Shown here piece after piece: positions 2,580-44,419 of a stretch of DNA of 64,000 nt; position 1 is the first letter of the stretch, and each line of letters opens with the position of its first letter. Source of the stretch: an uncultured bacterium (GTDB lineage Bacteria > Zixibacteria > MSB-5A5 > UBA10806); the NCBI GenBank assembly GCA_965602185.1, contig CBFCYP010000001.1, positions 1,413 to 65,412 of the forward strand, read 5' to 3'. The notes beneath the pieces are model-generated. The model made no database searches. It was given only the letters and a program-made list of their open reading frames with translations, and was not told the DNA's origin. The position numbers were made by a program, and so were the translations under genes.

Positions 2580-2594
2580 GGGCATGCGTGTTGC
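2580..2594 (+). promoter_or_regulatory. Candidate sigma54 (RpoN) -24/-12 promoter for the ylxF-fliK-flgD-flgE... operon
   Basis: GGGCAT-gcgtg-TTGCTTAA matches the TGGCAC-N5-TTGCW consensus with GG and GC 10 nt apart. The same extended motif recurs at 27321-27335. A GGGAG RBS and an ATG at 2624 lie downstream. Confidence 0.45.
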
Positions 2595-2623
2595 TTAAAG
2601 GGAGTCGGGAGATTGCAGAAAGT

Positions 2624-3145
2624 ATGTTTAAGATTGTGGGAATGGGTTTGATGACAATAGCAGGATTTATAATATACTCCATTTTGTTCAGCTTCGCCTA
2701 CGGTTTGAGCCCGGCGGACGCGGCCAAAATCGTCATAACCGGCGGTTTAAATAAAGACCCCATCTCGATTTATCAGAAGACTTTGGCGGAAATCGATTCC
2801 ATAAGAACCGAGAAGTTCAAAATATTCAGAGTTATTGAGGACTCCCTGGCGGAGGAGAAAAGAAAAGTCGACTCCGAGAAAGCCGAGGTACAGTCCATGC
2901 GTGACGAAATCTCAAGGCTTATGGATTTGAAAAAGAAATTGGAAGACAGCAGCTTATATAACCTGGCAAAGATCTATAACGACATGGACCCCATTCAGCT
3001 GGCCAATGTTATGATAGACCTCGATGATACATTGATAATTATGGTGCTGCCGAAAATGAAAAACGATAAGGCCAGCAGGATTCTGGAGATGCTTCCGCCG
3101 GCAAGATCGGCTCAAATTTCATCCATGCTGTTGGGAAAAGAATGA
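2624..3145 (+). CDS. MgtE-N-domain flagellar protein (YlxF/MotE-like), N-terminal membrane anchor
   Basis: N-terminal TM helix and a C-terminal MgtE_N-like segment (DLDDTLIIMVLPKMKNDKASRILEMLPPARSAQISSML). It sits immediately upstream of fliK, as ylxF does in B. subtilis. The ORF-track GTG start at 2588 would lie inside the predicted promoter, so ATG 2624 with a GGGAG RBS is preferred. Confidence 0.6.
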   Translation: MFKIVGMGLMTIAGFIIYSILFSFAYGLSPADAAKIVITGGLNKDPISIYQKTLAEIDSIRTEKFKIFRVIEDSLAEEKRKVDSEKAEVQSMRDEISRLMDLKKKLEDSSLYNLAKIYNDMDPIQLANVMIDLDDTLIIMVLPKMKNDKASRILEMLPPARSAQISSMLLGKE

Positions 3146-4782
3146 TGGGATACCTCTTTCAAAATATCGGGCAACTGGCTGGATTTTTCGTAAATCAGGG
3201 CGAAAGCGCTTGTCCTGAAAAGCCCGCCGCGCCGGTGTCAGAAATATCTTTTGAATCAATCTTCGATTCCTTAACCGGGTCTTTTAAAAGTAAAATGAGC
3301 GATATGCCCGAAAATGGCTATTTAAATGAGAATATAGAGTTTGTAGAAAGGACATTTTTAAATGAAGACGCGTTAAAAGCGTTAATCGAAAATCAGGGAA
3401 AGATTGTAACATTAGAGATATCATCCGATGAAATCTCCCGTTATCTGGATGATTTATCTCTACCGGCTATTAATAAAAAATATGGCTCTGGCATAATACC
3501 GGCCGATTCCGCAGGGGATACCACAAAATTCGCAATAAACGAGTCTTCGAGATCGACCTACCGGATATCATTTAATACCGCGGATCTATTTGATAAAGCC
3601 TATCTGCCGGTTGATCTTACTAACGTTGACGGTCAAAAAACAACGCAACTGATTGATGTAACAAAACTTGTCCGTCTGATTAATGAATATCCCGAGCCCC
3701 TGCAGACTGAAATCGAGATAATGCCTGAAATAGATAACGCCAAGAGTCTCAATGAATTTAAATCAACGTTTAAATTCGATCTGAGAAATTTATTCGGGAC
3801 TGCCGGCATAAAACCTTCGAAATCCATAGAAGGATTGATTTCATTGACCGCCGGTCAATTATCTAAAAATACGGCCGTTAATTCCTATAATATTTCATAT
3901 AATAATAAAGAAAGCCTGCCGAAAGTGACCCTATTCGATACAGAAAATCCGCAACAAGCGGAAATGTCTTATAAAACCAGTAATCTGGACGGGCTTTTCC
4001 TTTTAAATCAAAAGATATCAATCTCTCTGTTGGGTTTAAGAAACCAGACTCCTCACAGGGGTAATATCAATTGTCATAGTGAAGATTTTGTTGCCCCTGA
4101 ATCACTTAACGAAATCGAAAGCGCCGGGGCCGGCGGTGATAAATCCGATAATAACGATAATCCCTCTGCGTTATCTAAAATTTCCGTCGGTTCCAGCGGC
4201 GCTTCGCCCCCGGCCCAATTTAATAACGCTTCAGCGGACGGATTTACGGGTCAATACGAACTGTTGAGGGGTGCAACGACAGAATACAGTCTGGAAGATA
4301 TTAGAGAAATGCCCATGAAGAATTTCGAGAATATAGAGAATATTAAAGCAAGCATTATCAACGCCATAGAACACGGCCGTTCGACTGTCAGGATGAGGCT
4401 TCATCCTGAAAATCTCGGATCGCTTCATATAAAGCTTCAGTGGAGAGCGGGTATGTTACTTACCGAATTCAGGGTCGAAACCGTCAAAGCCGGCGAGATT
4501 GTTTCCGCGATCCTGCCGGAATTGAGAGCCAGCCTTGAAGAGGCAAATCTGAGATTGACCGATATCAATGTGGTCGTCAATGATCGCGGGAGAGAGTTTT
4601 CATCGGCTCATAATCCGCAGTATCATTCCGGCTCCGCCTGGAACGGACAGGATAGAAGAGGCAGATCGTCGTTCGAGGGTTACGACAACCCCGATACCGA
4701 AACCATTAATGAGAAAACCGCCAGGATCGGTAATCCCGGATCCGGGTCGAGCCATAAAGGTTGGATAGACCTTAAAGCTTAG
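3142..4782 (+). CDS. fliK: Flagellar hook-length control protein FliK
   Basis: C-terminal Flg_hook domain (RSTVRMRLHPENLGSLHIKLQWRAGMLLTEFRVETVKAGEIV) on a long low-complexity N-terminal region. ATGA overlap with the upstream gene; positioned between ylxF-like and flgD. Confidence 0.8.
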   Translation: MMGYLFQNIGQLAGFFVNQGESACPEKPAAPVSEISFESIFDSLTGSFKSKMSDMPENGYLNENIEFVERTFLNEDALKALIENQGKIVTLEISSDEISRYLDDLSLPAINKKYGSGIIPADSAGDTTKFAINESSRSTYRISFNTADLFDKAYLPVDLTNVDGQKTTQLIDVTKLVRLINEYPEPLQTEIEIMPEIDNAKSLNEFKSTFKFDLRNLFGTAGIKPSKSIEGLISLTAGQLSKNTAVNSYNISYNNKESLPKVTLFDTENPQQAEMSYKTSNLDGLFLLNQKISISLLGLRNQTPHRGNINCHSEDFVAPESLNEIESAGAGGDKSDNNDNPSALSKISVGSSGASPPAQFNNASADGFTGQYELLRGATTEYSLEDIREMPMKNFENIENIKASIINAIEHGRSTVRMRLHPENLGSLHIKLQWRAGMLLTEFRVETVKAGEIVSAILPELRASLEEANLRLTDINVVVNDRGREFSSAHNPQYHSGSAWNGQDRRGRSSFEGYDNPDTETINEKTARIGNPGSGSSHKGWIDLKA

Positions 4783-4793
4783 GGGGCAATAAA

Positions 4794-5525
4794 ATGACAG
4801 ATATTTCGCCGATCAGCAATATCCCCGGGGTGGCCACTAATATAGCCAGTACCGGAAGTTCAAACCTGGGTAAAAATGATTTTTTGAACCTGCTCGTAAC
4901 TCAGCTGCGGTATCAGGATCCGCTGGAACCGATGCAGGACTCGGATTTTGTGGCGCAGCTGGCGCAGTTCTCATCGCTCGAACAGCTATCCAATATCAGC
5001 ACGTCGCTGGGCTATTCCACGGAACTCGATTATATCCTGAGCCAGACCATCGCCAATACCATGGCTACCACCATTATCGGCAAGGAAGTGGTGGCCGAGG
5101 GGAGCACTATATACCACGAGTATGATACAGATTCCCGAATCTGTTTTGAGCTGGATGCGGACGCAAAGAATGTCGAGGTGAAAATATATAATGAAACCGG
5201 TTCTCTGGTGAGAGTCCTTTCTGATCAGGATCTTGAAAAAGGAATGAACTATATCGATTGGGATGGAAAGGATAACTCCGGATCCAAAATCGCCGGGGGA
5301 GAATACACGTTTGAGATTACAGCCAAAGACTCGTCGGATGAAAGCGTGGGAGTTCAAACCAGGATTGTGGGGATAGTCGAATCGGTTCGTTATGAAAACG
5401 GCAAAGGATATTTAATCGTCAACGGGCAGAAAATAGAGATGTCGGATATTATCGAAATCAATCTGCCGAGCGGTTCTGAAAACGGTTCCGGCAAATCCGA
5501 AGAAGAAGATCCATTTTGGAATTAG
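4794..5525 (+). CDS. flgD: Flagellar hook assembly/capping protein FlgD
   Basis: N-terminal FlgD signature FLNLLVTQLRYQDPLEPMQDSDFVAQLAQFSSLEQL. Confidence 0.9.
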   Translation: MTDISPISNIPGVATNIASTGSSNLGKNDFLNLLVTQLRYQDPLEPMQDSDFVAQLAQFSSLEQLSNISTSLGYSTELDYILSQTIANTMATTIIGKEVVAEGSTIYHEYDTDSRICFELDADAKNVEVKIYNETGSLVRVLSDQDLEKGMNYIDWDGKDNSGSKIAGGEYTFEITAKDSSDESVGVQTRIVGIVESVRYENGKGYLIVNGQKIEMSDIIEINLPSGSENGSGKSEEEDPFWN

Positions 5526-5555
5526 AAATAAATCTTAAGGGAATCCACGAAGGAG

Positions 5556-5951
5556 GTGGTAATGGAAAATTATAGGATCGGCGCCGAAAACGTCGGTCGT
5601 ATCAAGCCGCAGGCGGGAAAAGAGAGAATCCCGCTCACTTCGAAAACCCCGAACGCCGAGTTTGCGAAGGAGCTTGATAATTCCCTAAAACAACTGACCA
5701 AACTGAAGTTTTCCGGGCATGCCATAGGAAGGCTGGCCGATCGCGGTGTTCAGCTTACCGGCGACAAAGCCTTGAGACTCGAAAACGCCGTCGATGTCGC
5801 CGAGAAGAAAGGCGCCCGGGATTCGTTGGTTCTGCTTGATGAACTGGCCTTTGTGGTGTCGGTGAAAAACAGGACCGTGGTTACCGCCTGTGATATGCAG
5901 GGGATGAAAGAAGGAGTGTTTACTAAAATTGACAGCACTATTCTCGGATAA
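5556..5951 (+). CDS. Small conserved flagellar-operon protein sitting between flgD and flgE (TIGR02530-like by position and size)
   Basis: 131-aa ORF behind a strong AAGGAGG RBS; position-conserved between flgD and flgE as in Firmicute and Thermotoga flagellar operons. The family assignment is from memory, not a search. Confidence 0.5.
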   Translation: MVMENYRIGAENVGRIKPQAGKERIPLTSKTPNAEFAKELDNSLKQLTKLKFSGHAIGRLADRGVQLTGDKALRLENAVDVAEKKGARDSLVLLDELAFVVSVKNRTVVTACDMQGMKEGVFTKIDSTILG

Positions 5952-6050
5952 AACAACAGGCTGGACCCCCAACGGGGAAGCCATTACCCGCGCCCGAATG
6001 GCGCGGCGGGTTGCCGGTATTTTTTGCCGGCGATCGGGAGGGTATAAATT

Positions 6051-8354
6051 ATGATGGCATCACTTTTCGCCGGCGTTTCGGGCTTGAGAAACCACCAGGT
6101 CAGGATGAACGTCGTCGGCGATAATATCGCGAACGTTAATACCATTGGATATAAGGCGGGGAGAACTACGTTTCAGGAAGCCCTGGTACAGACCATGAGA
6201 GGCGCCAGCAGGCCCTCCAGCACCACCGGCGGCACCAACCCGCTTCAGCTCGGCTTGGGGATGAGCGTCGCCACAATCGACAATCTGTTCCTGCAGGGCG
6301 GCCTCGAGACCACCGGGCAGGTAACCGACCTCGGCATCCAGGGAACCGGCTTCTTTGTCGTTTCCGACGGACAACAGGATTTTTATACCAGGGCCGGCGC
6401 ATTCGGATTCGATGCGGATTCCAACATGATAAGTCTATCGACCGGATATATCCTCCAGGGCAAGATGGCCGATGTTGACGGTACGATCCCTGCCAATGCT
6501 CCCATCGGGAATATCGTTATGCCTTTCGGGCAGCAGGATCCTGCCAGAGAGACATCTGAAATTGAACTGGGTATGAATCTGAATTCCGCCGCGACCGACT
6601 CGGTGGCCACGCTGGTTTCCGCCGGCAACTCGAACGTTATCGCAGTCTCAGGTTATGCGGCCGACGGTTCCGGAGGACAGCACATTATTACCTTAACGGG
6701 CTCTAATGCTCAGTATTCGGAGCTCGCGGGGGTTCATGCAAATACTCTTGATGATGTTGTCGCCGGCGATGTGGCGACGGTTGTCGGGGGAGGCGGTACC
6801 GGGACTTTACCCGCCGATGATTACGTATATACGGTCATCGCACAAAATTCACTGGGGAATTCTAGCGGCGCCGAAATAACCGTTAACGGCGTGCCTGCAA
6901 ACGGTTCGGTCGATCTTACCATTACCTATGCCGATCCCGATGTTACATCAATTCAGATTTATAGAAGGCCTGCCGGAGGCACCTACGGAGGTACCCTGGG
7001 AGGAAAAATCTATGACGGCGCTTACGTTGCGCCGGGACCGCTCAACTTCACCGATGACGGTTCCCAGGCGGGCGATGGGGCCTCTCCGCCATCGATAAAC
7101 ACAACCCTTACCCTGGACTCGGCCACGCAACTATCCGATATCGGCGTAACTGACATATCCGGTTTCAGGTTGGCTGTGGACGGCGGTACCTGGGTAACAT
7201 TACCGGCATTGTCGTTGGATTCATCGGTTGGCGATCTTATTTCCGCGATTAACGCCAGCGCTCCCGGAGTTACCGCATCTCTTGAAAACGGGGAAATCAA
7301 TATAAAACGCAATTACGCCGGCGCTCCCTCAACCTACAATGTTGTGCTGGAGGATACTGGAACATCGGACGTAGGTGCTCAGGTGTTTGGCGGCGCGATA
7401 TTTAATGTAAACAATGGCGCGGCATCGACATTGCAGGCGACCGACGTATTTACGCCTACGGACCGTACCGCCCTGGCCGCTGAAGATCTTGAACTGATTT
7501 TTGACCCCAATACCGGAATTGTAACCGGCATCTCCGGACTTGGCGGTGGCGGGTTGACTGTTCAAACAGCAACCGGTGGATTAGTTGGTGATCCTGACGG
7601 TGTCGGCCCTGAAACATCCTCGACACTTATCGTGGATACCGACGAAACCCAGCATGCCACCTCGATAGGCGTGTTCGATTCACAGGGCGGCAAACACAAT
7701 CTGTCCATTACATTCACGAAATCCTGGATAGACAATCAATGGTTCTGGGAGGCCTCTTTCGCGGGAACCGAGACCATACGGTCCGGTGGAAGCGGAGTTA
7801 CGAATTTCAACCCGGATGGCTCGCTGGCATCCTTCACCTACGACGGTGGAGCATCGAGTTTGAATGTCAGCCCGAACAACGGCGCCTATGATATGGACAT
7901 AGATTTACTGGCCGGAACTGCAGGTGCTTTTGACGGTTTAACCGGATTCGCTTCGAATTCAACCGCCGCGGCAAGAGCCCAGGATGGTTACGGAGTGGGT
8001 ATCCTTTCCAATATCAGTATCGATTCCTCGGGCCTCATTACCGGTATTTTTACAAACGGTGTTTCGAGAGTCCTGGCCAGAGTATATCTGGCGGAGTTCA
8101 ACAATCCGGGCGGTCTTTTAAAAACCGGCCAGAGCATTTATCAGGAATCGGCCAACACTGGATCCGCTATTATGAGCATTCCCGCCGAAACGACATCCTC
8201 GACAATAACCTCCGGCGCGCTGGAAATTTCAAATGTCGATCTGGCGCAGGAGTTTACAAGCATGATTGTTTCTCAGCGCGGATTCCAGGCCAATGCCCGG
8301 GTTATTACAACATCGGACCAGATGCTAAATGAGCTTGTTAATTTGAAGAGTTAG
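6051..8354 (+). CDS. flgE: Flagellar hook protein FlgE, enlarged (767 aa)
   Basis: N-terminus SLFAGVSGLRNHQVRMNVVGDNIANVNTIGYK and C-terminus DLAQEFTSMIVSQRGFQANARVITTSDQMLNELVNL are canonical FlgE. A large Gly/Thr/Ser-rich central insertion accounts for the extra length. Confidence 0.92.
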   Translation: MMASLFAGVSGLRNHQVRMNVVGDNIANVNTIGYKAGRTTFQEALVQTMRGASRPSSTTGGTNPLQLGLGMSVATIDNLFLQGGLETTGQVTDLGIQGTGFFVVSDGQQDFYTRAGAFGFDADSNMISLSTGYILQGKMADVDGTIPANAPIGNIVMPFGQQDPARETSEIELGMNLNSAATDSVATLVSAGNSNVIAVSGYAADGSGGQHIITLTGSNAQYSELAGVHANTLDDVVAGDVATVVGGGGTGTLPADDYVYTVIAQNSLGNSSGAEITVNGVPANGSVDLTITYADPDVTSIQIYRRPAGGTYGGTLGGKIYDGAYVAPGPLNFTDDGSQAGDGASPPSINTTLTLDSATQLSDIGVTDISGFRLAVDGGTWVTLPALSLDSSVGDLISAINASAPGVTASLENGEINIKRNYAGAPSTYNVVLEDTGTSDVGAQVFGGAIFNVNNGAASTLQATDVFTPTDRTALAAEDLELIFDPNTGIVTGISGLGGGGLTVQTATGGLVGDPDGVGPETSSTLIVDTDETQHATSIGVFDSQGGKHNLSITFTKSWIDNQWFWEASFAGTETIRSGGSGVTNFNPDGSLASFTYDGGASSLNVSPNNGAYDMDIDLLAGTAGAFDGLTGFASNSTAAARAQDGYGVGILSNISIDSSGLITGIFTNGVSRVLARVYLAEFNNPGGLLKTGQSIYQESANTGSAIMSIPAETTSSTITSGALEISNVDLAQEFTSMIVSQRGFQANARVITTSDQMLNELVNLKS

Positions 8355-8512
8355 GAGATAAGGGAACTGGGGGAGCTCGACTCCCCCGATCCCGGATTAG
8401 CAGGTAGATAATGATAAACTTAATCCCGATCAGCGAAAACGGTCTTGGCGGTATAATTGAATCATCACTTCATCAGTTATCGTTGAATGGATCGGAGAAG
8501 GGCAGGTGAAAT

Positions 8513-9103
8513 ATGCCTGAAGCAGCTACGACCGAAGCGGTTGAGGAGGTTAAAAAAGCTCCGGAAGAGGAATCTTCAGAGGAATCCAAACCTGATAAAC
8601 CAAAGTCCGGCGGGTTGCTGCAAACCGTGATTATTATCGCCATTATGCAGATAATCACGCTTGCAGGGGCATTCTTTTTCGTAAAAATGTATCTGGTACC
8701 GAAAGTGACTGTTGAGGGGAAAGCGGTTGAGGAAATTGCCCCGCAGGAAAGAGAGCCGGCACAGATCCATATGATAGAGGATCTGGTGGTGAATCCCGCG
8801 GGTACCAACGGCACCAGGTATTTATCCGCCTCAATCGGCTTGGAATACGCTAAGGCTATTGATTCGGAGAAATCTGTGAAAGCATCAGGCGGTCATAGCG
8901 CAAGTTTGGCCGGGGGTATGGGCAATAAAGAGCCGATATTAAGAGATATCCTCATAGCGATTTTAACCTCAAAAAATATAGAGCAGTTGAGTTCGGCTGA
9001 GGGCAAAGAGGCGCTGCGCGCGGAGATCATGGAAAAAATCAATCATGAGGTCGCGCCGGATACGGTATATAAGGTGTATCTGGTGGACTACGTTTTACAG
9101 TAA
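8513..9103 (+). CDS. fliL: Flagellar basal-body-associated protein FliL
   Basis: Single TM helix (LLQTVIIIAIMQIITLAGAFFFVKMYLV) followed by the FliL domain (VVNPAGTNGTRYLSASIGLEY...LRAEIMEKINHEV). Confidence 0.85.
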   Translation: MPEAATTEAVEEVKKAPEEESSEESKPDKPKSGGLLQTVIIIAIMQIITLAGAFFFVKMYLVPKVTVEGKAVEEIAPQEREPAQIHMIEDLVVNPAGTNGTRYLSASIGLEYAKAIDSEKSVKASGGHSASLAGGMGNKEPILRDILIAILTSKNIEQLSSAEGKEALRAEIMEKINHEVAPDTVYKVYLVDYVLQ

Positions 9104-9105
9104 TT

Positions 9106-10095
9106 ATGGCGCAGGTATTATCACAGGAAGAGATCGACGCTCTATTGACAAATGTCGATTCCGAGGACGCGTTAACCGCTCCGCCGGAGATGTCGGCGAC
9201 GTCCGGTCGCAGCGAGGGCGAACGGAAAGCGGTATTGTATGATTTCAAACACCCGAACAGGGTATCCAAAGATCAACTCAGATCGCTGGAGTCTCTTCAT
9301 GACAACTTCGCCAATCAGTTCGGCTCGCAGCTTTCCGGTTTTACGCGGTCGGTAGTCGATGTCGATCTGATATCGGTGGATCAGATAACCTACTCTGAAT
9401 TTATTATGTCCCTCGCCACTCCGTCATGTACTTACATGTTCGTCCTGGATCCTATCGATGGCGCCGGAATAGTGGATTTCAATCCTTCCATTGCTTTTTC
9501 ATTCGTGGACAGGATGTTCGGCGGAAAGGGAAAAGCCCTGAATACCGAGCGCGAACTGACCGGTATCGAGAAATCGATAATGTCAAAAATTATAGCCAGA
9601 TCTTTTCAGGCTCTGGGCAAGGCCTGGGAACATGTGGAGAAGCTGGAGTTCAGACAATCGGGCTTCGAGAGCAATCCGCAGTTCATTCAAATCGTCCCTC
9701 CCGGCGAAACGGTAGTCGTTGTATCTATGCAAATAAAAATGCTGTCGTCATCGGGATTGGTGACGCTTTGCTATCCGTATCTGACGCTGGAGCCGATAAT
9801 GGAAAAACTATCCACACAACATTGGATCGAAGCCAGAAAAAAGGGCGACGACAGCGGACGGTATGAATCCAACGCCAGGAGTCTCTCGGCGGTAAGTACC
9901 GATCTAAGAGCTTTACTCGGAGGCACGAGGGTTACGGTAAAAGATTTAATGAATCTCAAGCCCGGTGACGTTATCAGACTTGATGAAAGCGATAATGATT
10001 ATGCGGTTGTTTATATCAGCGACAGGAGGAAATTTTTCGCAATACCGGGCCGCGTGGGGAAAATGAAAGCTATAAAAATAAAGGATAAAATTTAA
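9106..10095 (+). CDS. fliM: Flagellar motor switch protein FliM
   Basis: N-terminal CheY-binding motif LSQEEIDALL, FliM middle domain and a C-terminal SpoA-like region. Confidence 0.9.
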   Translation: MAQVLSQEEIDALLTNVDSEDALTAPPEMSATSGRSEGERKAVLYDFKHPNRVSKDQLRSLESLHDNFANQFGSQLSGFTRSVVDVDLISVDQITYSEFIMSLATPSCTYMFVLDPIDGAGIVDFNPSIAFSFVDRMFGGKGKALNTERELTGIEKSIMSKIIARSFQALGKAWEHVEKLEFRQSGFESNPQFIQIVPPGETVVVVSMQIKMLSSSGLVTLCYPYLTLEPIMEKLSTQHWIEARKKGDDSGRYESNARSLSAVSTDLRALLGGTRVTVKDLMNLKPGDVIRLDESDNDYAVVYISDRRKFFAIPGRVGKMKAIKIKDKI

Positions 10096-10106
10096 AGGGG
10101 ATCAAT

Positions 10107-19811: not shown

Positions 19812-20198
19812 ATGAATTACAACATCCTGATTTTGGTGGCAGCATCTTTAAATTTTATGGTGGGATTGGCGCTCCTGTATTTCCTCGTAAGGAATTTCGG
19901 AGTTGTCAGAAAACTGTCAAATGAAAAGCATAAACATCTCGATCGTTACTTTGACGATTTGCTGGAGAGGATTCAACGAATCGAAAGAAATCATCCCGTT
20001 CAGGCCGTCGCGAATTTAGAATCATACATTCCGGAAATGAGCGGTTCCGGAGCCAATCGAATAAAATCCGTCGTGGAAAAACTTCGCAACGGGGGCAATC
20101 CGGATGAAGTACGGAGAGAACACGGTTATTCCGGATCGGAAATGGGTTTGATACTGGCCGCCGCGGGGTTGACCGGGAACGGGCCGAACGCCATATAA
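19812..20198 (+). CDS. Single-pass membrane protein with a C-terminal HTH-like segment, hypothetical
   Basis: N-terminal TM helix (ILILVAASLNFMVGLALLYFLV), a coiled-coil middle and C-terminal LRNGGNPDEVRREHGYSGSEMGLILAAAGL. It may resemble DUF2802-type flagellar-cluster proteins; this is unverified. Confidence 0.45.
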   Translation: MNYNILILVAASLNFMVGLALLYFLVRNFGVVRKLSNEKHKHLDRYFDDLLERIQRIERNHPVQAVANLESYIPEMSGSGANRIKSVVEKLRNGGNPDEVRREHGYSGSEMGLILAAAGLTGNGPNAI

Positions 20199-20202
20199 TC
20201 CC

Positions 20203-20229
20203 TTTAGGAAATCAAGGCGATGCCGATAG
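20203..20229 (+). promoter_or_regulatory. Possible sigma28-type promoter (strong -10, weak -35) for the zinc-ribbon/ycgR-like operon
   Basis: GCCGATAG at 20222-20229 matches the GCCGATAA -10 in 7 of 8 positions. The -35 (TTTA) is poor. Confidence 0.3.
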
Positions 20230-20262
20230 TTTTAAAGGGAACAATTACCGGAGAGGTTTAAT

Positions 20263-21447
20263 ATGGCCAATGATCAAACACCCTACTTCGCTACCAAAAT
20301 TGAATGTCCCGTTTGCGGCTACCTAAATTCGTTTGAAATTCTAAAGCAGGGCTCCTACACGGAATCCGGTAAGGATACCGATTTCGCTCCCACGGGCAGA
20401 GTCTGGAATAATCCCGCCTTTCAGAGATATAATCCCCTTCTGTATTTCACGGGCACCTGCGGGAATTGTTACTATACCCGTGAGATAAACTCCTCGTTCA
20501 GAAAATGGCAGAAGGATAACGGTTTTCGCACTTATCGGCTTCCGAATCAAAAAAAGGGACATTTGAAGGAAATTGCCGGAGAAGGTAGCGTAATAAAAGC
20601 TCTCGCAACAAATATCGATTATAAGAATTTTCCGAATGAATCAGCCATCATCAAACTGCTTATAGCCATTTACGACGAATTGCTTCTGGAGCGGCCAACA
20701 TCTCTTGACGTGGCCAGATATTACCTCCGTATCGCCTGGATATACCGCGAGATGTCAAGCGGGAAATGCGAAAATATTTCTCCGGCTCAAATAACCGTGA
20801 GCAATATTCAGCGTGAAATTAACCGGCTGAAAAAATATATCGATGGTTTGGGTGATCACATCGAACCTCTCTTGAATATGGTAAATGATGATCTGAAGCC
20901 GATGCTTTCTCAGGATCAATTTCCGGGCGGATTAACGTTCCGAATGGGAGAGGGGATCGATAGTATCTTTGGGTCATGGAGAGAGATCCAGGAGAATATC
21001 AACCGGATCGAATCAGAATTTAATATGGGGAAAGAAGAAATCTGCGATCATGAGAACGAGGATAAAGTCCAGACCGACTTCGGGGGATATCCCGCTTTTA
21101 ACGATTATCTGAGTAAAATTCGGGAAAGCTGGCTGGGCGTTCCGTTAACCGAATTCGGGTCTTTAGACTTCGCGCTGCAATACTATCTCAAGGCATACCA
21201 GAACAGCAAAGAAATCAAGCCGGGGCTCCAGCAGCTCCAGGCCTCATATGTGATCGCGGAGCTTTCAAGACGCGTGGGAAACAATAACCAGGCCATGGAA
21301 TATTTTAGGAATACCTCCAAACAAGCTCATGAGATGATGAATCGGAATAGAAACGATAAGACCGTTTTTGCAAACGCGCAAAAAATCTTCGAAATGTCGC
21401 TGGAACAGGCCCGACTTCTAAAAAAACCAGAGAAGGTGAAAAAATGA
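20263..21447 (+). CDS. Zinc-ribbon (CPVCG...CGNC) plus helical-repeat protein, DUF2225-like, hypothetical
   Basis: N-terminal four-Cys motif (ECPVCGY...TGTCGNCYY) and a C-terminal TPR-like helical region. Its stop overlaps the downstream PilZ gene start (ATGA). Confidence 0.55.
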   Translation: MANDQTPYFATKIECPVCGYLNSFEILKQGSYTESGKDTDFAPTGRVWNNPAFQRYNPLLYFTGTCGNCYYTREINSSFRKWQKDNGFRTYRLPNQKKGHLKEIAGEGSVIKALATNIDYKNFPNESAIIKLLIAIYDELLLERPTSLDVARYYLRIAWIYREMSSGKCENISPAQITVSNIQREINRLKKYIDGLGDHIEPLLNMVNDDLKPMLSQDQFPGGLTFRMGEGIDSIFGSWREIQENINRIESEFNMGKEEICDHENEDKVQTDFGGYPAFNDYLSKIRESWLGVPLTEFGSLDFALQYYLKAYQNSKEIKPGLQQLQASYVIAELSRRVGNNNQAMEYFRNTSKQAHEMMNRNRNDKTVFANAQKIFEMSLEQARLLKKPEKVKK

Positions 21448-22187
21448 AAAACCGCATCGGCGCAAAAAGCGACAATCTCGCCCTCTGGGACAGGTTGATC
21501 CTGACTCTAAAAAAAGACGACGGAAGATCTGAATTTATCAGCAGGGTGGAGAATAAAAAACGGAATTCATACGTTTTTGAAATGCCCGTCAGGCAAAGCG
21601 GTAAATGCAATTTACAAAAAGGAGATGTTGTGGAAGTCCGTTATAACAGGCGCGACGCCGCCTATACGTTCAAAGCGAGCATAAAGGACCTCTTTGTCGA
21701 CGACGTCGGATCGATCGAGGTGAAACGGGAAGGCGAAACCAGAAGGGAGCAGCGCCGAAAATATGTGAGGCTGAATATATCGGAGAGTATAAATTTCAGG
21801 ATATTGGAATCTCCCGAAAATGACGACGTCGGCTTGAGTCCTGAGTTCCAGGGATTGCTTTTAAACATTTCCGCCGGCGGTTTTCTTTTCGAGACGGAAA
21901 AAAAAGTACCGTCGGATTCCCTGCTCATAATTAAATTCAAGCTTAAGTATCATTATTCATTAGAAAACATACTCGCCATAGTCAAACGGTCGGAACAAAC
22001 CGGCGACGGTTTATTTCTGGTGGGATCGGAGTTTATTACCAAAGCCAATAAGGGCGATTTCGGCCTGGAGAGACTGGACGAATATCTTCCGCCCGGAACC
22101 GGAACATTTGATGAAAATCTCCAGAGGCTTATAGTCCAGTTCATTTACAATCAACAGGTGGAAATGCGTAAAGAGGGCAAGCTTTAG
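21444..22187 (+). CDS. ycgR: YcgR-like c-di-GMP-binding PilZ-domain protein (candidate flagellar brake)
   Basis: 247 aa. An N-terminal PilZN-like domain is followed by PilZ motifs RRKYVR (RxxxR) and NISAGG (D/NxSxGG). Located in the flagellar regulon. Confidence 0.75.
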   Translation: MKNRIGAKSDNLALWDRLILTLKKDDGRSEFISRVENKKRNSYVFEMPVRQSGKCNLQKGDVVEVRYNRRDAAYTFKASIKDLFVDDVGSIEVKREGETRREQRRKYVRLNISESINFRILESPENDDVGLSPEFQGLLLNISAGGFLFETEKKVPSDSLLIIKFKLKYHYSLENILAIVKRSEQTGDGLFLVGSEFITKANKGDFGLERLDEYLPPGTGTFDENLQRLIVQFIYNQQVEMRKEGKL

Positions 22188-22188
22188 C

Positions 22189-22746
22189 ATGAAATCAATT
22201 TACAGGTTGTTTTCATCTGGAATATTCTCAGTTTATATTTTTTGTTCAACTGTTTCAGGAACATTGATTCCATCCACGAATATAGCGGTGATTCTGGAAA
22301 CAGAGAAATTCGCATATCCCGATAAGGGCCAGTTGATATTTTCTTCTCTGGAAAAGGAAATGCGTCTTAAGGGATTCATGGGAAGACTCAGAGTTATAGA
22401 AAGAGAGGATCGGCCGGCCGTATCCGGCGAGACCGTGGTTAAAATCACTATCACGAAAAACCGATGGCTGACAAGAAAACTCCTATCCATACCGTATATG
22501 CTGAATCGATACAGAAGAGAATACATAATAGAATCGTTTGTCGAGATCCCGGAAGGAAAAAACGGGATGTCCATAATAAGAATCACGGCGGCGAGTTCCG
22601 CTCGCGCAATCACTCAATATGTTAACAATGATAAATACGATCCCGCTCTTTTTCCAAATCAAATGGAACAACTGGAAATGAAAGAAAACGCCAGAAAGAT
22701 GCTGGCCAAAAAACTCGCGAATCATCTTTTCAATCAACTGAGGTAG
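22189..22746 (+). CDS. Hypothetical exported protein or lipoprotein
   Basis: 185-aa ORF with a signal-peptide-like N-terminus (MKSIYRLFSSGIFSVYIFCSTVSG). No recognisable domain. Confidence 0.45.
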   Translation: MKSIYRLFSSGIFSVYIFCSTVSGTLIPSTNIAVILETEKFAYPDKGQLIFSSLEKEMRLKGFMGRLRVIEREDRPAVSGETVVKITITKNRWLTRKLLSIPYMLNRYRREYIIESFVEIPEGKNGMSIIRITAASSARAITQYVNNDKYDPALFPNQMEQLEMKENARKMLAKKLANHLFNQLR

Positions 22747-22871
22747 CGCTGTTTAACGACGGAAAAGTAACGGAGTTCTTAAGCCGTAATGAAAATAATA
22801 CTCAAGATAACATATCATCTGTGGAGATCCGCTTTTTCGGGCGGACATTTTAAACCTGAATAGGAGTAAAT

Positions 22872-23720
22872 ATGGAGGAAGCAGTACCTCGAGATTCCGA
22901 CAAAATAGACTATTTCGGTATGGCCGGCGAATTGAAGGCTTTATGCGAAATATCCAAGGCCGTTCAGGAGGCAGATATTTCAGAGGAATCTTTTGAAGAG
23001 ATCTTAAAAGCTGTTGGGAGAATCATCGACTTCAGATCGGGATCGCTTTTTCTGTTTTCCAAGGAAACCGGAAAGCTCGATGAAATATGCACTATCGGAC
23101 ACCGTGTAGATTTAATTAATTTTGTTGAGTTTGATATGGGTATGGGAATATCCGCCTGGGTAGCCCAAAAAAGAAGACCTATATTATTGAATAATCTGAG
23201 AAAGTCAAAAGGCGGAGTTCACATCAGGTCTTTCCTATCGGTAGCTATCGTCTATGGTAACGAAATTATAGGAGTTATTAATCTCGCGCACGACGAACCC
23301 AATGCGTTCACCCGACGGGATTCCAATATTCTCGGAATAGTATCAACCCTCTTCGCGTTGTTATCGGAACGAATCTATCATAAAAAATTCGAGACCTGCG
23401 CCCGCGTGGAGATCGATTCCCTGAACGAACAGTTGAATAAAACCAGGATTGAAATGTCAAAGATGGAAAGTATTCGCGGAACCGGCGATCTTTCGGAATC
23501 CCTGAGCAAGCAGATAGCAAATCCCCTGGCAATAATCGCGGGCAACGCCCAGTTTCTGTTGATGACTGTGAAAAATTCATCCAGTTCGGTTATCAGAAGG
23601 CTTAAGGCTATCGATAAAGAGGCATCGAATATCGCCGCGCTGGCAAGCCGGTGCCTGTCCGGGTCTTATACTGAAAAAGAGGTCTCCGTCGAATCAAAAG
23701 AAGAATATCGGAGAATCTGA
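22872..23720 (+). CDS. GAF-domain protein with a His-less DHp (HisKA-like) domain and no ATPase domain (pseudo-histidine-kinase)
   Basis: A GAF-like region is followed by SKQIANPLAIIAGNAQFLL. This aligns with the HEIRNPLTVIGGHSN H-box of the adjacent kinase, with the phospho-His replaced by Lys/Gln. The protein ends right after the DHp region. Confidence 0.6.
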   Translation: MEEAVPRDSDKIDYFGMAGELKALCEISKAVQEADISEESFEEILKAVGRIIDFRSGSLFLFSKETGKLDEICTIGHRVDLINFVEFDMGMGISAWVAQKRRPILLNNLRKSKGGVHIRSFLSVAIVYGNEIIGVINLAHDEPNAFTRRDSNILGIVSTLFALLSERIYHKKFETCARVEIDSLNEQLNKTRIEMSKMESIRGTGDLSESLSKQIANPLAIIAGNAQFLLMTVKNSSSSVIRRLKAIDKEASNIAALASRCLSGSYTEKEVSVESKEEYRRI

Positions 23721-23736
23721 TACTTTTAAAATAGCT

Positions 23737-25476
23737 TTGAGATATAAGATGAACTTGACGGGTGAGTTAATACGGGATTCTTCGGAAACGGTCAGGCCGG
23801 CCGCTTTCTTTACGCTGGATAAGAATTATTTTATCGGAAATATGGCCCAATACGGTTCCCTGTTTTGTGAATTCAATTGTATAAACGACCTTTTAAAAAA
23901 CAAAAGTTTCCTGCCTCTCGATAATCCCCATGTGAGGAACGCAATTAATAATGCGTTTAACGAAATGCCCTCGCAGGTGCGTTTCGAACATACAATTGGC
24001 GATAGGACATTTCATTTTGATTTATACTGCTTCCCGGAACTGGGGCAGGACAACTCGTCCATCGGCTGTTTTCTCGCCGATAGATGCCGCGACGAGGAAA
24101 CGGCAATATCGTTGCAGACGAAAGTCGACAGGCTCGATATTATCAATCAGGCCGTGAGAGCGTTTGCCGAGACAACCAATCTTAATGAAATTTTACGAAT
24201 AATTCTACTTGCGGTAACCTCCGGTCCCGGGCTCGGTTTTAACCGGGGATTCATTTTTTTATCCGATGAGTCCCGTACGTATCTTCACGGGTGTCTTGCT
24301 ACCGGCCCTTCCTCGCCTGCTGAAGCGGGCGAAATCTGGAAAAGTTTGTCTGAAAAATCCCTTTCCTTGGCCGAAATATTGCGTTTTTACAGAAGCGGGG
24401 AAAGCCCTTTTGACACCTATGTTAACCAGCTGGTAACGTCCTTGAAAATACCTCTTACCAAAAGCTCCAGTTTTTTGAAACGGTCTTATGAGGAAAGACG
24501 AGCTCTGGTTATCGATTCTGTTTCAAATCTAAATGAAGACGAAATATCCTTGAAGAAAAAATTGGAGGCCGAAAGTCTGGCCGTTGCCCCCTTGGTTTCA
24601 CGTGATTCGTGGCTGGGAGTTATCATAGCGGATAACCTTATCACTAATAAGCCGATCTCATCCTCGGATTTGCAGCTTCTGGAAATCTTCGCGCGCTATG
24701 CCTCGGACGCCATCGATAATACCCATCTATACGGCAGGCTCCAGAGAAAGATCGCGAAGCTTAAAGAGGCCAATGAAGAAATTATCAGGACCAGGGAGAA
24801 TCTAATCCGTTCGGAGAAATTAACGGGTATATCGAAAATGGCTCTGGAAGTGGCTCATGAGATTCGCAATCCTTTGACGGTGATCGGCGGTCATTCCAAC
24901 GCGAGGCTCAGAAAAATGAAGGATGATCCTGAAAACGAGAGAATTTATGGCATAATTTCCAAACAAACTGCCCGAATAGAAAACACTCTAAACCGTTTCT
25001 CCAGCATTATTTCCCTGAGCGAGAAAGAAGACGGCGAATTTAATATCGGCGACCTGGTTATAGAAACCCTCAGGACAATGACATCGATTAAATCGGAAAA
25101 GATGCCTATCGTTGACGTCGATGATAAGGCTAAGGACGGAAAGATATTTATCGATCAGGGTCTCTTTCACAAAGCCCTGATGATAATTATTAGAGAAGCG
25201 TCATTAATCGCGGGAGGATTGTCGAATCTCAGGTTGGAAATTAAAAAACGGCATAATTCCGCCATTATATTGATCGGCAGCGACGGACTATACCAAAAAT
25301 TCGCCCATAGTTTTTTTTATGCCATGCGTATCGGGCAGGATGAGTTGAAATCGCAGGAGATGTCGGTCGCCCTCGAGATAATAAAACATTACGGCGGGGA
25401 CCTGGGTATAGGCTCCCCGGAAATATCGAAGGGATGGCTGATCGTGGAATTCCCATTAATCAAGGAGGAAAAGTGA
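23737..25476 (+). CDS. Cytoplasmic GAF-domain sensor histidine kinase (HisKA H-box present; catalytic-domain motifs divergent)
   Basis: No TM segment. GAF region, then HisKA box EVAHEIRNPLTVIGGHS. The C-terminal ATPase-like region has a G2-like GGDLGIG, but the N-box Asn is not evident (ALMIIIREASL). Confidence 0.7.
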   Translation: MRYKMNLTGELIRDSSETVRPAAFFTLDKNYFIGNMAQYGSLFCEFNCINDLLKNKSFLPLDNPHVRNAINNAFNEMPSQVRFEHTIGDRTFHFDLYCFPELGQDNSSIGCFLADRCRDEETAISLQTKVDRLDIINQAVRAFAETTNLNEILRIILLAVTSGPGLGFNRGFIFLSDESRTYLHGCLATGPSSPAEAGEIWKSLSEKSLSLAEILRFYRSGESPFDTYVNQLVTSLKIPLTKSSSFLKRSYEERRALVIDSVSNLNEDEISLKKKLEAESLAVAPLVSRDSWLGVIIADNLITNKPISSSDLQLLEIFARYASDAIDNTHLYGRLQRKIAKLKEANEEIIRTRENLIRSEKLTGISKMALEVAHEIRNPLTVIGGHSNARLRKMKDDPENERIYGIISKQTARIENTLNRFSSIISLSEKEDGEFNIGDLVIETLRTMTSIKSEKMPIVDVDDKAKDGKIFIDQGLFHKALMIIIREASLIAGGLSNLRLEIKKRHNSAIILIGSDGLYQKFAHSFFYAMRIGQDELKSQEMSVALEIIKHYGGDLGIGSPEISKGWLIVEFPLIKEEK

Positions 25477-25829
25477 AAAACATCTTAATTGTGGACGACG
25501 AGGAAGATATTCGTAGCCTGTATGAAAGCGAATTCGAGATTGAAGGGTATAAGATATATTCGGTTTCATCCGGATCGGAAGCCCTTGACTTTGTCGAAAA
25601 TAATTTCAGTCTCGATCTGGTGATTCTCGATATTAAAATGGATGATATGGACGGACTTGAGGTGCTGGAAAATATCAGGACCAGAACTAACAAGGTACCG
25701 GTAATTTTGAACTCGGCTTACTCCACTTATAAAAACAACTTCACGTCCTGGCTGGCCGACGCCTATCTTGTTAAGTCATCAAATCTATCCGAATTAAAAG
25801 ATAAGGTTCGGGAGCTTCTGGCAGTTTGA
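25473..25829 (+). CDS. Single-domain response regulator receiver (CheY-like)
   Basis: DD pair (IVDDEED), phospho-acceptor Asp (LVILDIKMDDMDG), and Ser/Thr and Lys positions. GTG start at 25473 with an AAGGAGGA RBS. The ORF-track 25434 start overlaps the kinase by 43 nt. Confidence 0.8.
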   Translation: MKNILIVDDEEDIRSLYESEFEIEGYKIYSVSSGSEALDFVENNFSLDLVILDIKMDDMDGLEVLENIRTRTNKVPVILNSAYSTYKNNFTSWLADAYLVKSSNLSELKDKVRELLAV

Positions 25830-26194
25830 ATACGGATAAAAAGACAGATCAAAAAGGGATCCTGGATTATTTAGAGGCGGTATCAGGCGAGATTCAGCTT
25901 CTCGCTCTAAATATAGCGGTTGCGGCGGCCAAGTTGGCGCACAACAACAAGATCGGAGTCGAGGTAAATCAAAATCTCTCCAATCTGGTAAATCGGGCCA
26001 CCCAGGCGGTCAAACAGATGAATCAGGTAATAGACGCCGCCAAGACAGAAAAAAGCCCCCGGGACGCATTTAACGATGCCAAAGATGAACCGGTCGATGG
26101 CGGACTCACCGAAAATATCGAATCCGCTATGAGCGATATAATCAGGGATTCGGAAAGAATAGTCCGGCTTCTCGCCAATGTTAAAAAGAGGTAA
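25826..26194 (+). CDS. Small all-helical protein with a single His in an AHxxKxG context: candidate Hpt phosphotransfer protein (MCP-tip-like alternative)
   Basis: 122 aa. The only His lies in LLALNIAVAAAKLAHNNKIG. The gene is wedged between receiver genes with a 4-nt overlap upstream and a direct abutment downstream. Confidence 0.45.
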   Translation: MNTDKKTDQKGILDYLEAVSGEIQLLALNIAVAAAKLAHNNKIGVEVNQNLSNLVNRATQAVKQMNQVIDAAKTEKSPRDAFNDAKDEPVDGGLTENIESAMSDIIRDSERIVRLLANVKKR

Positions 26195-26565
26195 TGCCGA
26201 TGCAGCCAGGAACTGTATTGCTGGTTGAAGACTCCGTTGAGGTAAGAGACGTTGTCGCTGAGATATTAACCCGGGATGGATATTCGGTTTCGATAACCAG
26301 TGACGGCCTCAGTGCATGGAAAATGATAAGTTCACAATACTTCGATCTCGTAATTTCCGATATGGGACTTCCGGGCATGGATGGGAAAGAACTTTTAAGA
26401 AATATGAGGAAAAACTCCATTAAAACACCGGTTTTGCTTACATCAGGAGTTAGAATAAAAGAGAAAATCGGTTGCGGCACCGTGTCGGATTGTCGTCTGA
26501 TTTATAAGCCATTCGAAATAAACGAAATAAAAAATGCCATTTTTGACCTTTTAAAGAAAAAATAG
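26194..26565 (+). CDS. Single-domain response regulator receiver
   Basis: LLVEDSVEVRD, phospho-acceptor LVISDMGLPGMDG, T in LLTSGV and K in YKPF. Confidence 0.85.
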   Translation: MPMQPGTVLLVEDSVEVRDVVAEILTRDGYSVSITSDGLSAWKMISSQYFDLVISDMGLPGMDGKELLRNMRKNSIKTPVLLTSGVRIKEKIGCGTVSDCRLIYKPFEINEIKNAIFDLLKKK

Positions 26566-26663
26566 TTTGACGAAAAAGTAATTTCTATTTGATTTAGAAC
26601 GATAATAATAAAGAAGATATAAGTCCCTGCTAATATAATTTTTCAAATAAGGAGCGCGGCGCA

Positions 26664-27086
26664 ATGAAAGAATACGTGAATATTCTTATCGTGGAAGACG
26701 AAGCCATGATGCGGAATCTTTTATTGAAAATATTGGAATCGGAAGGTTATAAGATTACTCTTGCGTCTTCGGCGGCTGAGGCTCTCGATAAACTGGAATG
26801 TGAAAAATACGACCTGCTGTTATCCGACGTTAAAATGCCGGGAATGAACGGATTTGAATTGCTTGAGAAAGTGAAAAGCCAGTGGAATGATATGGCGGTT
26901 ATCGTAATGACGGGATATGGAGACGCCTACACTATCAAAGAGGCTCTGATGAAGGGAGCCGATGAATATCTGTCAAAGCCCTTTAAAAGCCATGAGGTTT
27001 CACTTATAGTCGAAAGGGCTTACTGGCGATTACTTTCGGCGAGAAATTCGGCTGAAAAATCAAAGCAACCGATAACGACACCGTAA
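26664..27086 (+). CDS. Single-domain response regulator receiver
   Basis: ILIVEDEAMMRN, phospho-acceptor LLLSDVKMPGMNG, T in VMTGYGD and K in SKPF. Confidence 0.85.
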   Translation: MKEYVNILIVEDEAMMRNLLLKILESEGYKITLASSAAEALDKLECEKYDLLLSDVKMPGMNGFELLEKVKSQWNDMAVIVMTGYGDAYTIKEALMKGADEYLSKPFKSHEVSLIVERAYWRLLSARNSAEKSKQPITTP

Positions 27087-27118
27087 AATAGCCCCTTTAT
27101 TTATTTCAATAATCTTAC

Positions 27119-27145
27119 ACGGCCTTCAAGGGCCGTTTTATTTAA
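27119..27145 (+). terminator. Rho-independent terminator after the receiver gene cluster
   Basis: ACGGCC-ttcaag-GGCCGT hairpin followed by TTTTATTT. Confidence 0.6.
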
Positions 27146-27320
27146 AAGAAATTTATTCACCTGTAAGCAGAAAGATTTTCCCATATTAATTTTGAGTTGT
27201 CGGGGCATAAAATATCCCCGATGATTTTCATGAATTCCGGGATAAAATAATCCCATATCGCACAAAGACTTGGGCTGGCCCGAGGGGCGCCGCCGGGAAT
27301 ACTTACGGATATTCCGTTTA

Positions 27321-27335
27321 GGGCATATCAATTGC
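27321..27335 (+). promoter_or_regulatory. Candidate sigma54 -24/-12 promoter for the flgFGAHIJ-flgNK-csrA-flgL-fliW operon
   Basis: GGGCAT-atcaa-TTGCTTAA, with GG and GC 10 nt apart. The extended motif matches the element at 2580-2594. The flgF ATG is 40 nt downstream, behind a GTGAGGA RBS. Confidence 0.45.
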
Positions 27336-27374
27336 TTAATAAAATGAGGGTTTTGGTATTGATGTGAGGATTTT

Positions 27375-28106
27375 ATGATAAAAGGAATTTACAGTTCGGC
27401 CTCGGGCATGCTCCCGAGGATTCTCAAGCAGGAAACCTTTGCCAACAACATGGCCAACGTTAATACTCCGGGCTTTAAAAAGGATGGAGTGTTTTTGCAG
27501 GTTCTGGATAAAGTCGCCCAAAAAGAGATCATAACCGATCATCCCTGGGAAGTACCCATGGTTGACGATATCTATATCGATTTTTCCCAGGGCGATCTCG
27601 AAAAAACGAATGTCGATACGAATTTCGCTATTGACGGCGACGGTTTTTTCGCGGTTCAGACGGAATCGGGAATAATGTATACAAGGTCAGGCGATTTCTC
27701 CCTTTCGCCGCAGGGAATTTTGGTTGATAAAAATGGAAATCAAGTATTAACCGACTCCGGGCCGTTGACCATACAGGCCGATTCTTTCATGGTCAGCGAT
27801 GACGGCACCGTAACGATTAATGAATTCGCGGCGGGGCGGATGAGGGTTGTCGATTTCGAAAAACCTTATCAGTTGAAAAAGGCAGGAGATTCTTATCTGG
27901 TACCCCCGGATCCCTCCGTCGTGGAAAGACCGGCAGCCGACTACAGAATCCGGCAGGGATATCTTGAAAAATCAAATGTAAACGTGGTCGAGGTAATGGT
28001 CGATATGCTCTCGTCTTTCAGGGCTTACGAGGCGGGGCAAAAAGCCATACAGTCACAGGACGAAACCCTGGATAAGGCCGTGAACGATCTGGGAAGATCA
28101 GCATAG
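27375..28106 (+). CDS. flgF: Flagellar basal-body rod protein FlgF
   Basis: N-terminal rod motif (SASGMLPRILKQETFANNMANVNTPGFKKD) and a C-terminal rod domain. Confidence 0.88.
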   Translation: MIKGIYSSASGMLPRILKQETFANNMANVNTPGFKKDGVFLQVLDKVAQKEIITDHPWEVPMVDDIYIDFSQGDLEKTNVDTNFAIDGDGFFAVQTESGIMYTRSGDFSLSPQGILVDKNGNQVLTDSGPLTIQADSFMVSDDGTVTINEFAAGRMRVVDFEKPYQLKKAGDSYLVPPDPSVVERPAADYRIRQGYLEKSNVNVVEVMVDMLSSFRAYEAGQKAIQSQDETLDKAVNDLGRSA

Positions 28107-28119
28107 ACTGGAGGATTAG

Positions 28120-28908: not shown

Positions 28909-28909
28909 A

Positions 28910-30165: not shown

Positions 30166-30167
30166 TT

Positions 30168-32176: not shown

Positions 32177-32198
32177 ATATGTAATAAATCACGATATT

Positions 32199-32720: not shown

Positions 32721-32721
32721 T

Positions 32722-34116: not shown

Positions 34117-34146
34117 TGTAAGTAATTCGGGGTCATGGAGGTCCCT

Positions 34147-34401
34147 ATGCTGGTATTGACAAGGAAGTCCGGAGAATCGATAGCGATTGGTAACGACATA
34201 AGGGTGACGATTCTGGGGATAAGCGGGAAACAGGCGAAAATCGGAATCTCCGCCCCGGAGAGAGTCCTCGTTTACAGGGAGGAAATTTTCAAGAAAATCC
34301 AGAGCGAAAATATTAAGGCCTCTATGTCGATTAAGGATGATTTGCAGGAATTAGCCACAATTATTAAAGCGAGAAAACGAAAAAACGATGGTGAAAAATA
34401 A
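34147..34401 (+). CDS. csrA: Carbon storage regulator CsrA (FliW-partnered type)
   Basis: [50 protein letters not shown] at 34147 with a GGAGG RBS; fliW lies downstream. Confidence 0.92.
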
Positions 34402-36514: not shown

Positions 36515-36523
36515 GAGGGTGCT

Positions 36524-44360: not shown

Positions 44361-44391
44361 GTTAATTGTTTCAAAAAAAATCTGTTTGGAT

Positions 44392-44419
44392 TAAAGCGTC
44401 CATATCTTCCTGTCGATTA
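44392..44419 (+). promoter_or_regulatory. Possible sigma28-type promoter for the flagellin gene
   Basis: TAAAGCGT-N12-GTCGATTA against the TAAAGTTT-N11-GCCGATAA consensus (6 of 8 in the -10). A 160-nt leader follows. Confidence 0.35.

Follow-up and report, generated by a model that had tools for sequence, protein, structure and literature searches.

Sigma-54-type promoter elements conserved ahead of three flagellar gene clusters in an uncultured Zixibacteria bacterium

Sigma-54 (RpoN) is almost universal among diderm bacteria that bear lipopolysaccharide, and its presence correlates with flagella (PMC3162934). RpoN-dependent flagellar genes are well documented in Vibrio, Pseudomonas, Campylobacter, Helicobacter and Caulobacter (PMC3930126). 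In Vibrio cholerae and Pseudomonas aeruginosa, FlrA or FleQ acts with RpoN first, followed by FlrBC or FleSR, again with RpoN, and then by FliA (PMC3930126). We examined a 64,000-nt stretch of DNA from an uncultured bacterium of the Zixibacteria lineage (GenBank assembly GCA_965602185.1, contig CBFCYP010000001.1, positions 1,413 to 65,412 of the forward strand; hereafter the window). Three elements in this window, designated P1, P2 and P3, lie ahead of the ylxF-like open reading frame orf2624, of fliR and of flgF, respectively, and judging from their sequence and conservation they are very probably RpoN-dependent promoters. Because sigma-54 is so nearly universal in such diderms and the window encodes L- and P-ring proteins, the finding is expected in kind.

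The arrangement resembles that of Vibrio and Pseudomonas in that sigma-54-type promoters stand before export-apparatus, hook and basal-body operons, flhF and an flhG-like gene adjoin fliA, and sigma-28 is available for late genes. Unlike in those genera, the window shows neither a master activator nor a two-component activator pair, the promoter positions differ, with fliQ and fliR split, and a csrA-fliW pair is present. Such pairs typify post-transcriptional control of the Bacillus and Campylobacter type, and the window shares a CsrA/FliW-type module with Campylobacter and Helicobacter. In the FlgS-FlgR-RpoN system of Campylobacter jejuni and Helicobacter pylori, rod and hook genes (of the flgE, flgD, fliK and flgFG type) also lie behind sigma-54 promoters and flagellin is under sigma-28, with the assembled export apparatus being a prerequisite for the RpoN regulon (PMC3930126). 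Here, by contrast, fliR-flhB-flhA themselves stand behind a sigma-54-type promoter, which is closer to the FlrA/FleQ tier. Chemotaxis (che) and flagellar operons of Geobacter carry predicted -24/-12 elements 16-50 nt before the operon starts, and sigma-28 sites precede fliC (PMC2577667). A 2025 survey of sigma-54, in which Zixibacteria do not appear, found that in several classes the genes behind predicted sigma-54 promoters are enriched for flagellar clusters of orthologous groups, FliR, FlhB and FliQ among them (PMC12316311). Both of these studies draw on the same kind of computational inference as ours. No paper pairing Zixibacteria with rpoN was found in the literature that we searched.

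All three elements read GGCAT-N5-TTGCT with exact spacing, compared with the consensus TGGCAC-N5-TTGCW; the base before GGCAT is G in P1, C in P2 and G in P3, against T in the consensus. P1 (GGGCATGCGTGTTGCTTAA, positions 2580-2598, plus strand) has its GG at 2581-2582 and its GC at 2593-2594, with a predicted transcription start site near 2606 and an ATG at 2624. P2 (CGGCATACGGCTTGCT, or CGGCAT-N5-TTGCT, positions 12496-12511, plus strand) is located in the 174-nt gap between fliQ and fliR, with GG at 12497-12498, GC at 12509-12510, a predicted start near 12522 and an ATG at 12541. P3 (GGGCATATCAATTGCTTAA, positions 27321-27339, plus strand) has GG at 27322-27323, GC at 27334-27335, a predicted start near 27347 and an ATG at 27375. 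The distance from the GC to the ATG is thus 30 nt for P1, 31 nt for P2 and 40 nt for P3, all on the gene strand, which leaves room for transcription to begin about 12 nt past the GC. A first-pass annotation of the window had reported GGGCAT-N5-TTGCTTAA twice, with 10 nt between GG and GC, a spacing that fits sigma-54. Both copies are exactly where it placed them (P1 and P3) and have this spacing, but the count is three, since P2 had been overlooked. The same annotation took the shared TTGCTTAA as an argument against chance; the stretch is indeed the same at both sites, but it is just the extended -12 consensus of the lineage (TTGCW-W-W-A) and nothing special to these two.

The core GGCAY-N5-TTGCW has four exact matches in the window against 0.36 expected, a count reached by none of 100 shuffles, and three of the four are intergenic, on the gene strand and 30-40 nt ahead of start codons. 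The fourth (positions 7421-7435, plus strand, GGCATCGACATTGCA) lies within flgE; it is present in contigs of the same species and is not conserved in relatives, and we rejected it as a candidate. When both strands were scanned with a position weight matrix for sigma-54, a crude one drawn up from the published consensus, P1, P2 and P3 were among the seven top matches. A weak sigma-54-like match (TGGCAG-N5-GTGCG, score 9.6) was found at 34467 in the gap between csrA and flgL.

We considered whether the likeness of the sites could be due to chance or to an RNA or DNA hairpin. The extended 14-base pattern with at most two mismatches gives some room for the former: it has two matches in the window against 0.42 expected, and 6 of 100 shuffles reach at least two, so that by itself it exceeds chance only weakly. 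The enrichment of the core and its conservation across relatives, described below, argue the other way. As for a hairpin, the three 41-nt stretches fold no better than shuffles (z = 0.0, +1.9 and +0.7), a result on which we rejected a structural RNA or DNA element, and an Rfam search of the window returned tRNA-Val only. We therefore regard this explanation as extremely improbable.

For the comparison with relatives, we fetched 80 FliP loci from genomes and mapped orthologues by tblastn; 18 of these are Zixibacteria-like loci, totalling about 291 kb. Another 80 FlgG loci were fetched from metagenomes for P3, and relatives were read as stretches of 10 kb to either side. The window itself comes from a metagenome assembly (ENA ERZ250734xx), and the closest FliP loci among species-representative genomes belong to two metagenome-assembled genomes (78-79% identical), with loci labelled Candidatus Zixiibacteriota reaching up to 75%. 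Even though the proteins are only 35-80% identical and the surrounding DNA has diverged, the element is kept at the same three positions.

At P1, the element is found in all 10 relatives that have the region upstream of orf2624 (L009, L010, L014, L016, L017, L025, L032, L050, L051 and L065). At P2, 17 of the 18 Zixibacteria-like loci have a matrix match of at least 11.4 bits (GGCA[CT]-N5-TTGC) 44-75 nt before the estimated fliR start, against a background of such matches of about 1e-4 per nt per strand, or about 0.02 per fliQ-fliR gap. The gap itself measures 175-266 nt in these 18 loci compared with at most 20 nt in most other lineages. At P3, the element lies 42-55 nt before flgF in all seven of the closest relatives with upstream sequence (L087, L088, L090, L091, L092, L095 and L097), whose FlgG proteins are 60-96% identical, and it also occurs ahead of flgF in many more distant, unassigned metagenome loci. 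The exact core GGCAY-N5-TTGCW has 21 matches in 15 related loci, every one of them at an orthologous P1 or P2 position and on the gene strand; chance would give about 1.6 over both strands of the 18 Zixibacteria-like loci. The promoter module is kept despite a differing upstream neighbor, be it a divergent S8 peptidase gene, a MiaB-like gene or fliI-fliJ. This conservation at orthologous positions strongly supports the earlier proposal of sigma-54-type -24/-12 promoters before the hook, rod and ring operons.

The same core was also seen elsewhere in the fetched loci. Exact matches on the gene strand lie just upstream of fliL, rather than fliR, at L015 6463, L022 2182, L055 2216 and L045 7536; these are found in FliP loci labelled Nitrospinota and in some labelled Desulfobacterales. 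Judging from these sequences, where the internal sigma-54-type promoter sits in this syntenic flagellar cluster appears to depend on the lineage. A recurrent TGGCAGGG-N4-TGCA was found about 750 nt upstream of fliA in two relatives (L016 16443-16458 and L024 10930-10945) and has no counterpart in the window. Perhaps this is another sigma-54-type site, placed ahead of the flhG-position gene.

Alignment of the flgF upstream regions revealed a pair of 13-bp boxes, GGAA-N5-TTCC with an A/T-rich center, and the same pair is found ahead of P1 and P2. The boxes of P1 are GGAAAAAAATACC (2447-2459) and TGAAAATATTGCC (2468-2480), starting 21 nt apart, with 133 nt from the first box to the -24 element. 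Those of P2 are GGCACTTTTTTCC (12367-12379) and GGAATTATTTTCC (12387-12399), starting 20 nt apart, with a corresponding distance of 129 nt, and those of P3 are AGAAATTTATTCA (27147-27159) and AGAAAGATTTTCC (27169-27181), starting 22 nt apart, with a distance of 174 nt. Among 34 orthologous upstream regions, 24 have the tandem pair, its boxes 20-23 nt apart, whereas 0.024 would be expected per region. Its distance from the promoter in relatives is 122-145 nt for orf2624, 127-131 nt for fliR and 174-187 nt for flgF. This architecture is found in all 10 relatives that have the P1 region and, for P3, in L087, L088, L090 and L091, while most fliR regions without the full pair still have the promoter-proximal box. 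Altogether, 27 of about 36 tandem matches in 23 related loci fall at the three promoter regions. Similar boxes precede sigma-54-type flgF promoters in the unassigned metagenome loci L121, L136, L138, L140, L146 and L153.

Two further exact boxes, within orf2624 (2788) and fliR (12717), lie about 210-220 nt downstream of P1 and P2. We considered them as downstream activator sites and took them instead as chance occurrences because none of 27 relatives has one. In L090 (1894-3561) and L091 (3578-5264), an extra gene of about 1.4-1.5 kb separates the flgF promoter module from the last receiver gene, and in both loci the boxes and the promoter remain directly upstream of flgF.

Activators of sigma-54 usually bind an enhancer made of two dyad sites about two helical turns apart and 100-190 nt upstream, as NtrC does at glnAp2. 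More generally, such sites are dyad-symmetric, usually two or more in number and about 80-200 nt upstream of the -24 element. The boxes fit this description as a tandem pair whose first box starts 122-187 nt upstream at all three promoters, and they are conserved together with the promoter across species. With moderate confidence, we consider them a candidate enhancer of a sigma-54 activator encoded elsewhere. Alternatively, the boxes may be operators of another regulator, such as a repressor or a second-messenger-responsive factor, with the sigma-54 activator working without binding DNA. There is precedent for the latter in H. pylori FlgR, which activates independently of DNA (PMC3930126), and the low information content and post hoc definition of the box motif also speak for this alternative. 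Such operators would have to share the layout usual for enhancers of sigma-54 activators: paired dyads separated by about two helical turns and kept at a constant 125-185 nt ahead of all three promoters, across species. We therefore judge this alternative unlikely, if still a serious one.

Several observations weigh against our reading of P1-P3 and their boxes. A motif scan of the window, of its 82-kb source contig (2 kb longer on the left and about 16 kb longer on the right) and of the fetched Zixibacteria-like loci found neither rpoN nor an AAA+ protein with a GAFTGA motif. In line with this, the first-pass annotation had rightly stated that no enhancer-binding protein is encoded in the window, and among the fetched loci a GAFTGA-type activator was found only in L074, which is unrelated. 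In a logo of 37 sites, GGCA and TTGC are invariant and the flanks carry no information; this invariance is partly circular because the sites were selected with a matrix built from the published consensus. The tandem pairs are not enriched in the window alone (four against 3.8 expected, three of the four being at P1-P3), so that what counts is their position and their conservation in relatives. The box motif is low in information content, and the window and some relatives had already been used to define it when it was tested. Finally, with only a weak hairpin at the end of fliQ (see below), transcription from P1 may read through, and P2 may then supplement it instead of delimiting a unit of its own.

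The absence of rpoN from these sequences is also what would be expected if the GGCA/TTGC element were the site of another DNA-binding protein or of another sigma factor. The circularity does not, however, extend to the positional conservation of the sites, to the occurrence of T as well as C after GGCA or to the W-W-A that follows TTGCW, positions that the matrix penalizes or leaves unscored. Moreover, the element lacks symmetry and in every case points toward the downstream gene, 30-75 nt before its start codon, and it consists of two invariant blocks at the exact spacing of sigma-54 with flanks matching the extended sigma-54 consensus. We know of no other sigma factor or regulator family with this -24/-12 signature. 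Another factor at these sites is thus very unlikely.

A simple sigma-70 scan gave no plus-strand candidate in the three intergenic regions. Such a scan may miss promoters of a housekeeping consensus specific to Zixibacteria, and transcription could in that case come from those promoters while sigma-54 binds P1-P3 unproductively, as a poised complex or a roadblock. For E. coli, many non-productive and intragenic sigma-54 sites are reported (PMC4591121). The sites in our window differ in being intergenic, correctly oriented, at promoter-like distances and conserved, each with conserved boxes upstream. We consider unproductive binding very improbable and retain sigma-54-dependent promoters as the reading of P1-P3.

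The gene layout given by the first-pass annotation is correct, and we distinguish three inferred transcription units on the plus strand, their extents being deduced from gene spacing only. Unit 1 (2624-12366) comprises the ylxF-like orf2624, which has a weak MgtE_N match, fliK, flgD, a TIGR02530 gene, flgE, fliL, fliM, fliN/Y, fliO, fliP and fliQ; its gene starts are called identically in the source assemblies. Unit 2 (12541-20198) comprises fliR, flhB, flhA, flhF, a gene for a divergent FlhG-like P-loop protein, fliA (sigma-28; 18705-19463) and two small open reading frames, and may continue beyond 20198. Unit 3 (27375-36994) comprises flgF, flgG, flgA, flgH, flgI, flgJ, flgN, flgK and csrA, and may run on across a 196-nt gap into a flgL-like gene and fliW. 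Since there are three promoters and P2 stands ahead of fliR, the first unit most likely stops at fliQ, leaving fliR-flhBA-flhF-fliA under a separate promoter.

The boundaries of these units carry further features. According to the first-pass annotation, the first gene begins at ATG 2624 and not at GTG 2588. Homologues align from residue 1-2 of the ATG 2624 product, and the gene callers of four source assemblies call this 173-amino-acid product, which bears the placement out; GTG 2588 falls within the P1 spacer. The leaders from the predicted starts measure about 18-28 nt and contain a Shine-Dalgarno-like GGAG, conserved at P1. A terminator-like hairpin with a T-run (12353-12378, plus strand) overlaps the fliQ stop and has five pairs, three of them G-C. 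A stronger intrinsic-terminator-like hairpin, ACGGCCTTCAAGGGCCGT, with a T-run (27119-27143, plus strand; seven pairs, five of them G-C), lies behind the last receiver gene, shortly before P3, and an equivalent hairpin is found in L087 and L088. On the other side of P1, positions 2223-2623 form an AT-rich divergent intergenic region; flagellar unit 1 therefore needs its own promoter there. The divergent neighbor, on the minus strand from ATG 2222 and past the window start, encodes a secreted S8 (subtilisin-like) peptidase of at least 1397 amino acids in the source contig. Small plus-strand open reading frames at 5-334, 1249-1527, 1515-1814 and 2095-2337 overlap this gene and were rejected as spurious.

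We propose that RNA polymerase with sigma-54 would occupy the GG (-24) and GC (-12) of P1, P2 and P3 as a closed complex, and that an AAA+ enhancer-binding protein encoded elsewhere, bound at the boxes, would open this complex by ATP hydrolysis. Transcription would then proceed from near 2606, 12522 and 27347, and the export-gate genes (fliR, flhB and flhA), the hook genes and the rod/ring genes would be switched on together. With fliA in the P2 unit, sigma-28 would come afterwards and in turn activate late-gene expression. The same box type at all three promoters suggests one activator and hence one tier, unlike the two tiers of Vibrio and Pseudomonas. The boxes also set the locus apart from H. 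pylori, where FlgR acts without an enhancer, and GGAA-N5-TTCC is unlike the FleQ site, GTCaNTAAATTGAC. A more specific proposal, which we put forward tentatively as one possibility, is that the boxes are the enhancer of an AAA+ flagellar master activator common to Zixibacteria, and possibly to other, unassigned lineages (L121, L136, L138, L140, L146 and L153), which would use identical modules to turn on all three classes of operon (export gate, hook and rod/ring) in one tier. The conserved separation of fliQ from fliR would then be a lineage-specific means of wiring fliR-flhBA-fliA to this activator.

Evidence for sigma-28 control of the late genes was sought with the consensus TAAA-N15-GCCGATAA, which has 13 matches in the window against about 10 expected and is thus not enriched, the matches being partial only. 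Partial sigma-28-like matches were noted ahead of the flagellin gene (44392-44419), fliD (46950-46976), the open reading frame at 50363 (50315-50341) and tRNA-Val (51933-51959). The last of these, TAAA-N14-GCCGATAA from 51933, is near-perfect, and 8 nt separate it from the 5' end of tRNA-Val(GAC) at 51968. This gene stands immediately past the flagellar region, with thrS-infC-rpmI-rplT-pheST downstream of it, and it would be unusual for a tRNA to have a sigma-28-type promoter. The window also has both csrA and fliW (34135-36994), together with a 751-amino-acid flagellin gene (44361-46838) whose leader after the sigma-28-like element is about 160 nt. In sequence terms, these features are compatible with CsrA-FliW partner-switch control of flagellin translation.

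Turning to the remaining genes, fliA is followed by small open reading frames, DUF2225/TPR, PilZ, GAF and GAF-HisKA genes and three genes for receiver-only proteins. The GAF-HisKA protein (23737-25476, 579 amino acids) had no HATPase_c detected in a Pfam scan; downstream of it, the three receiver-only proteins are accompanied by a small protein with a weak MCP-signal match. The first-pass annotation conjectured that the receiver cluster (25434-27086) might feed a distant activator; no DNA-binding or AAA+ domain was found in the cluster itself. The GAF-HisKA/receiver cluster is kept upstream of flgF in four close relatives (L087, L088, L090 and L091). The gene at the flhG position (17868-18686, 272 amino acids) has no Pfam or NCBIfam match at E <= 1e-3, retains a P-loop-like GSPLPGKS and has homologues in relatives that are only 22-36% identical; its product may be a very divergent MinD/FlhG-type ATPase. 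Downstream of fliW are glycosylation and TPR genes, the 751-amino-acid flagellin gene, fliD, fliS and housekeeping genes. On either side of the TPR, glycosyltransferase and sugar-modification genes, an unusually large protein of the flagellin family is encoded (638 amino acids in one case, 751 in the other).

Flagellar control of the RpoN type is already known, and the general picture of RpoN-controlled flagella is unchanged by our analysis. What is new is the lineage, the conserved gap between fliQ and fliR with its internal promoter and the candidate enhancer motif; neither this gap nor the GGAA-N5-TTCC boxes were found described in the literature searched. For a candidate phylum known from metagenomes only, the locus provides a testable regulatory map, with three promoters, their predicted starts, a candidate enhancer and a putative cascade from sigma-54 to sigma-28. 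With the box motif as a query, Zixibacteria genomes can be screened for additional regulon members, and the activator can be traced as an enhancer-binding protein whose gene carries the boxes or co-occurs with them. Taken together with the fliL-upstream elements, the map suggests that the position of the sigma-54 promoter within an otherwise syntenic flagellar cluster differs by lineage, with the promoter preceding fliR in this one and fliL in some other phyla.

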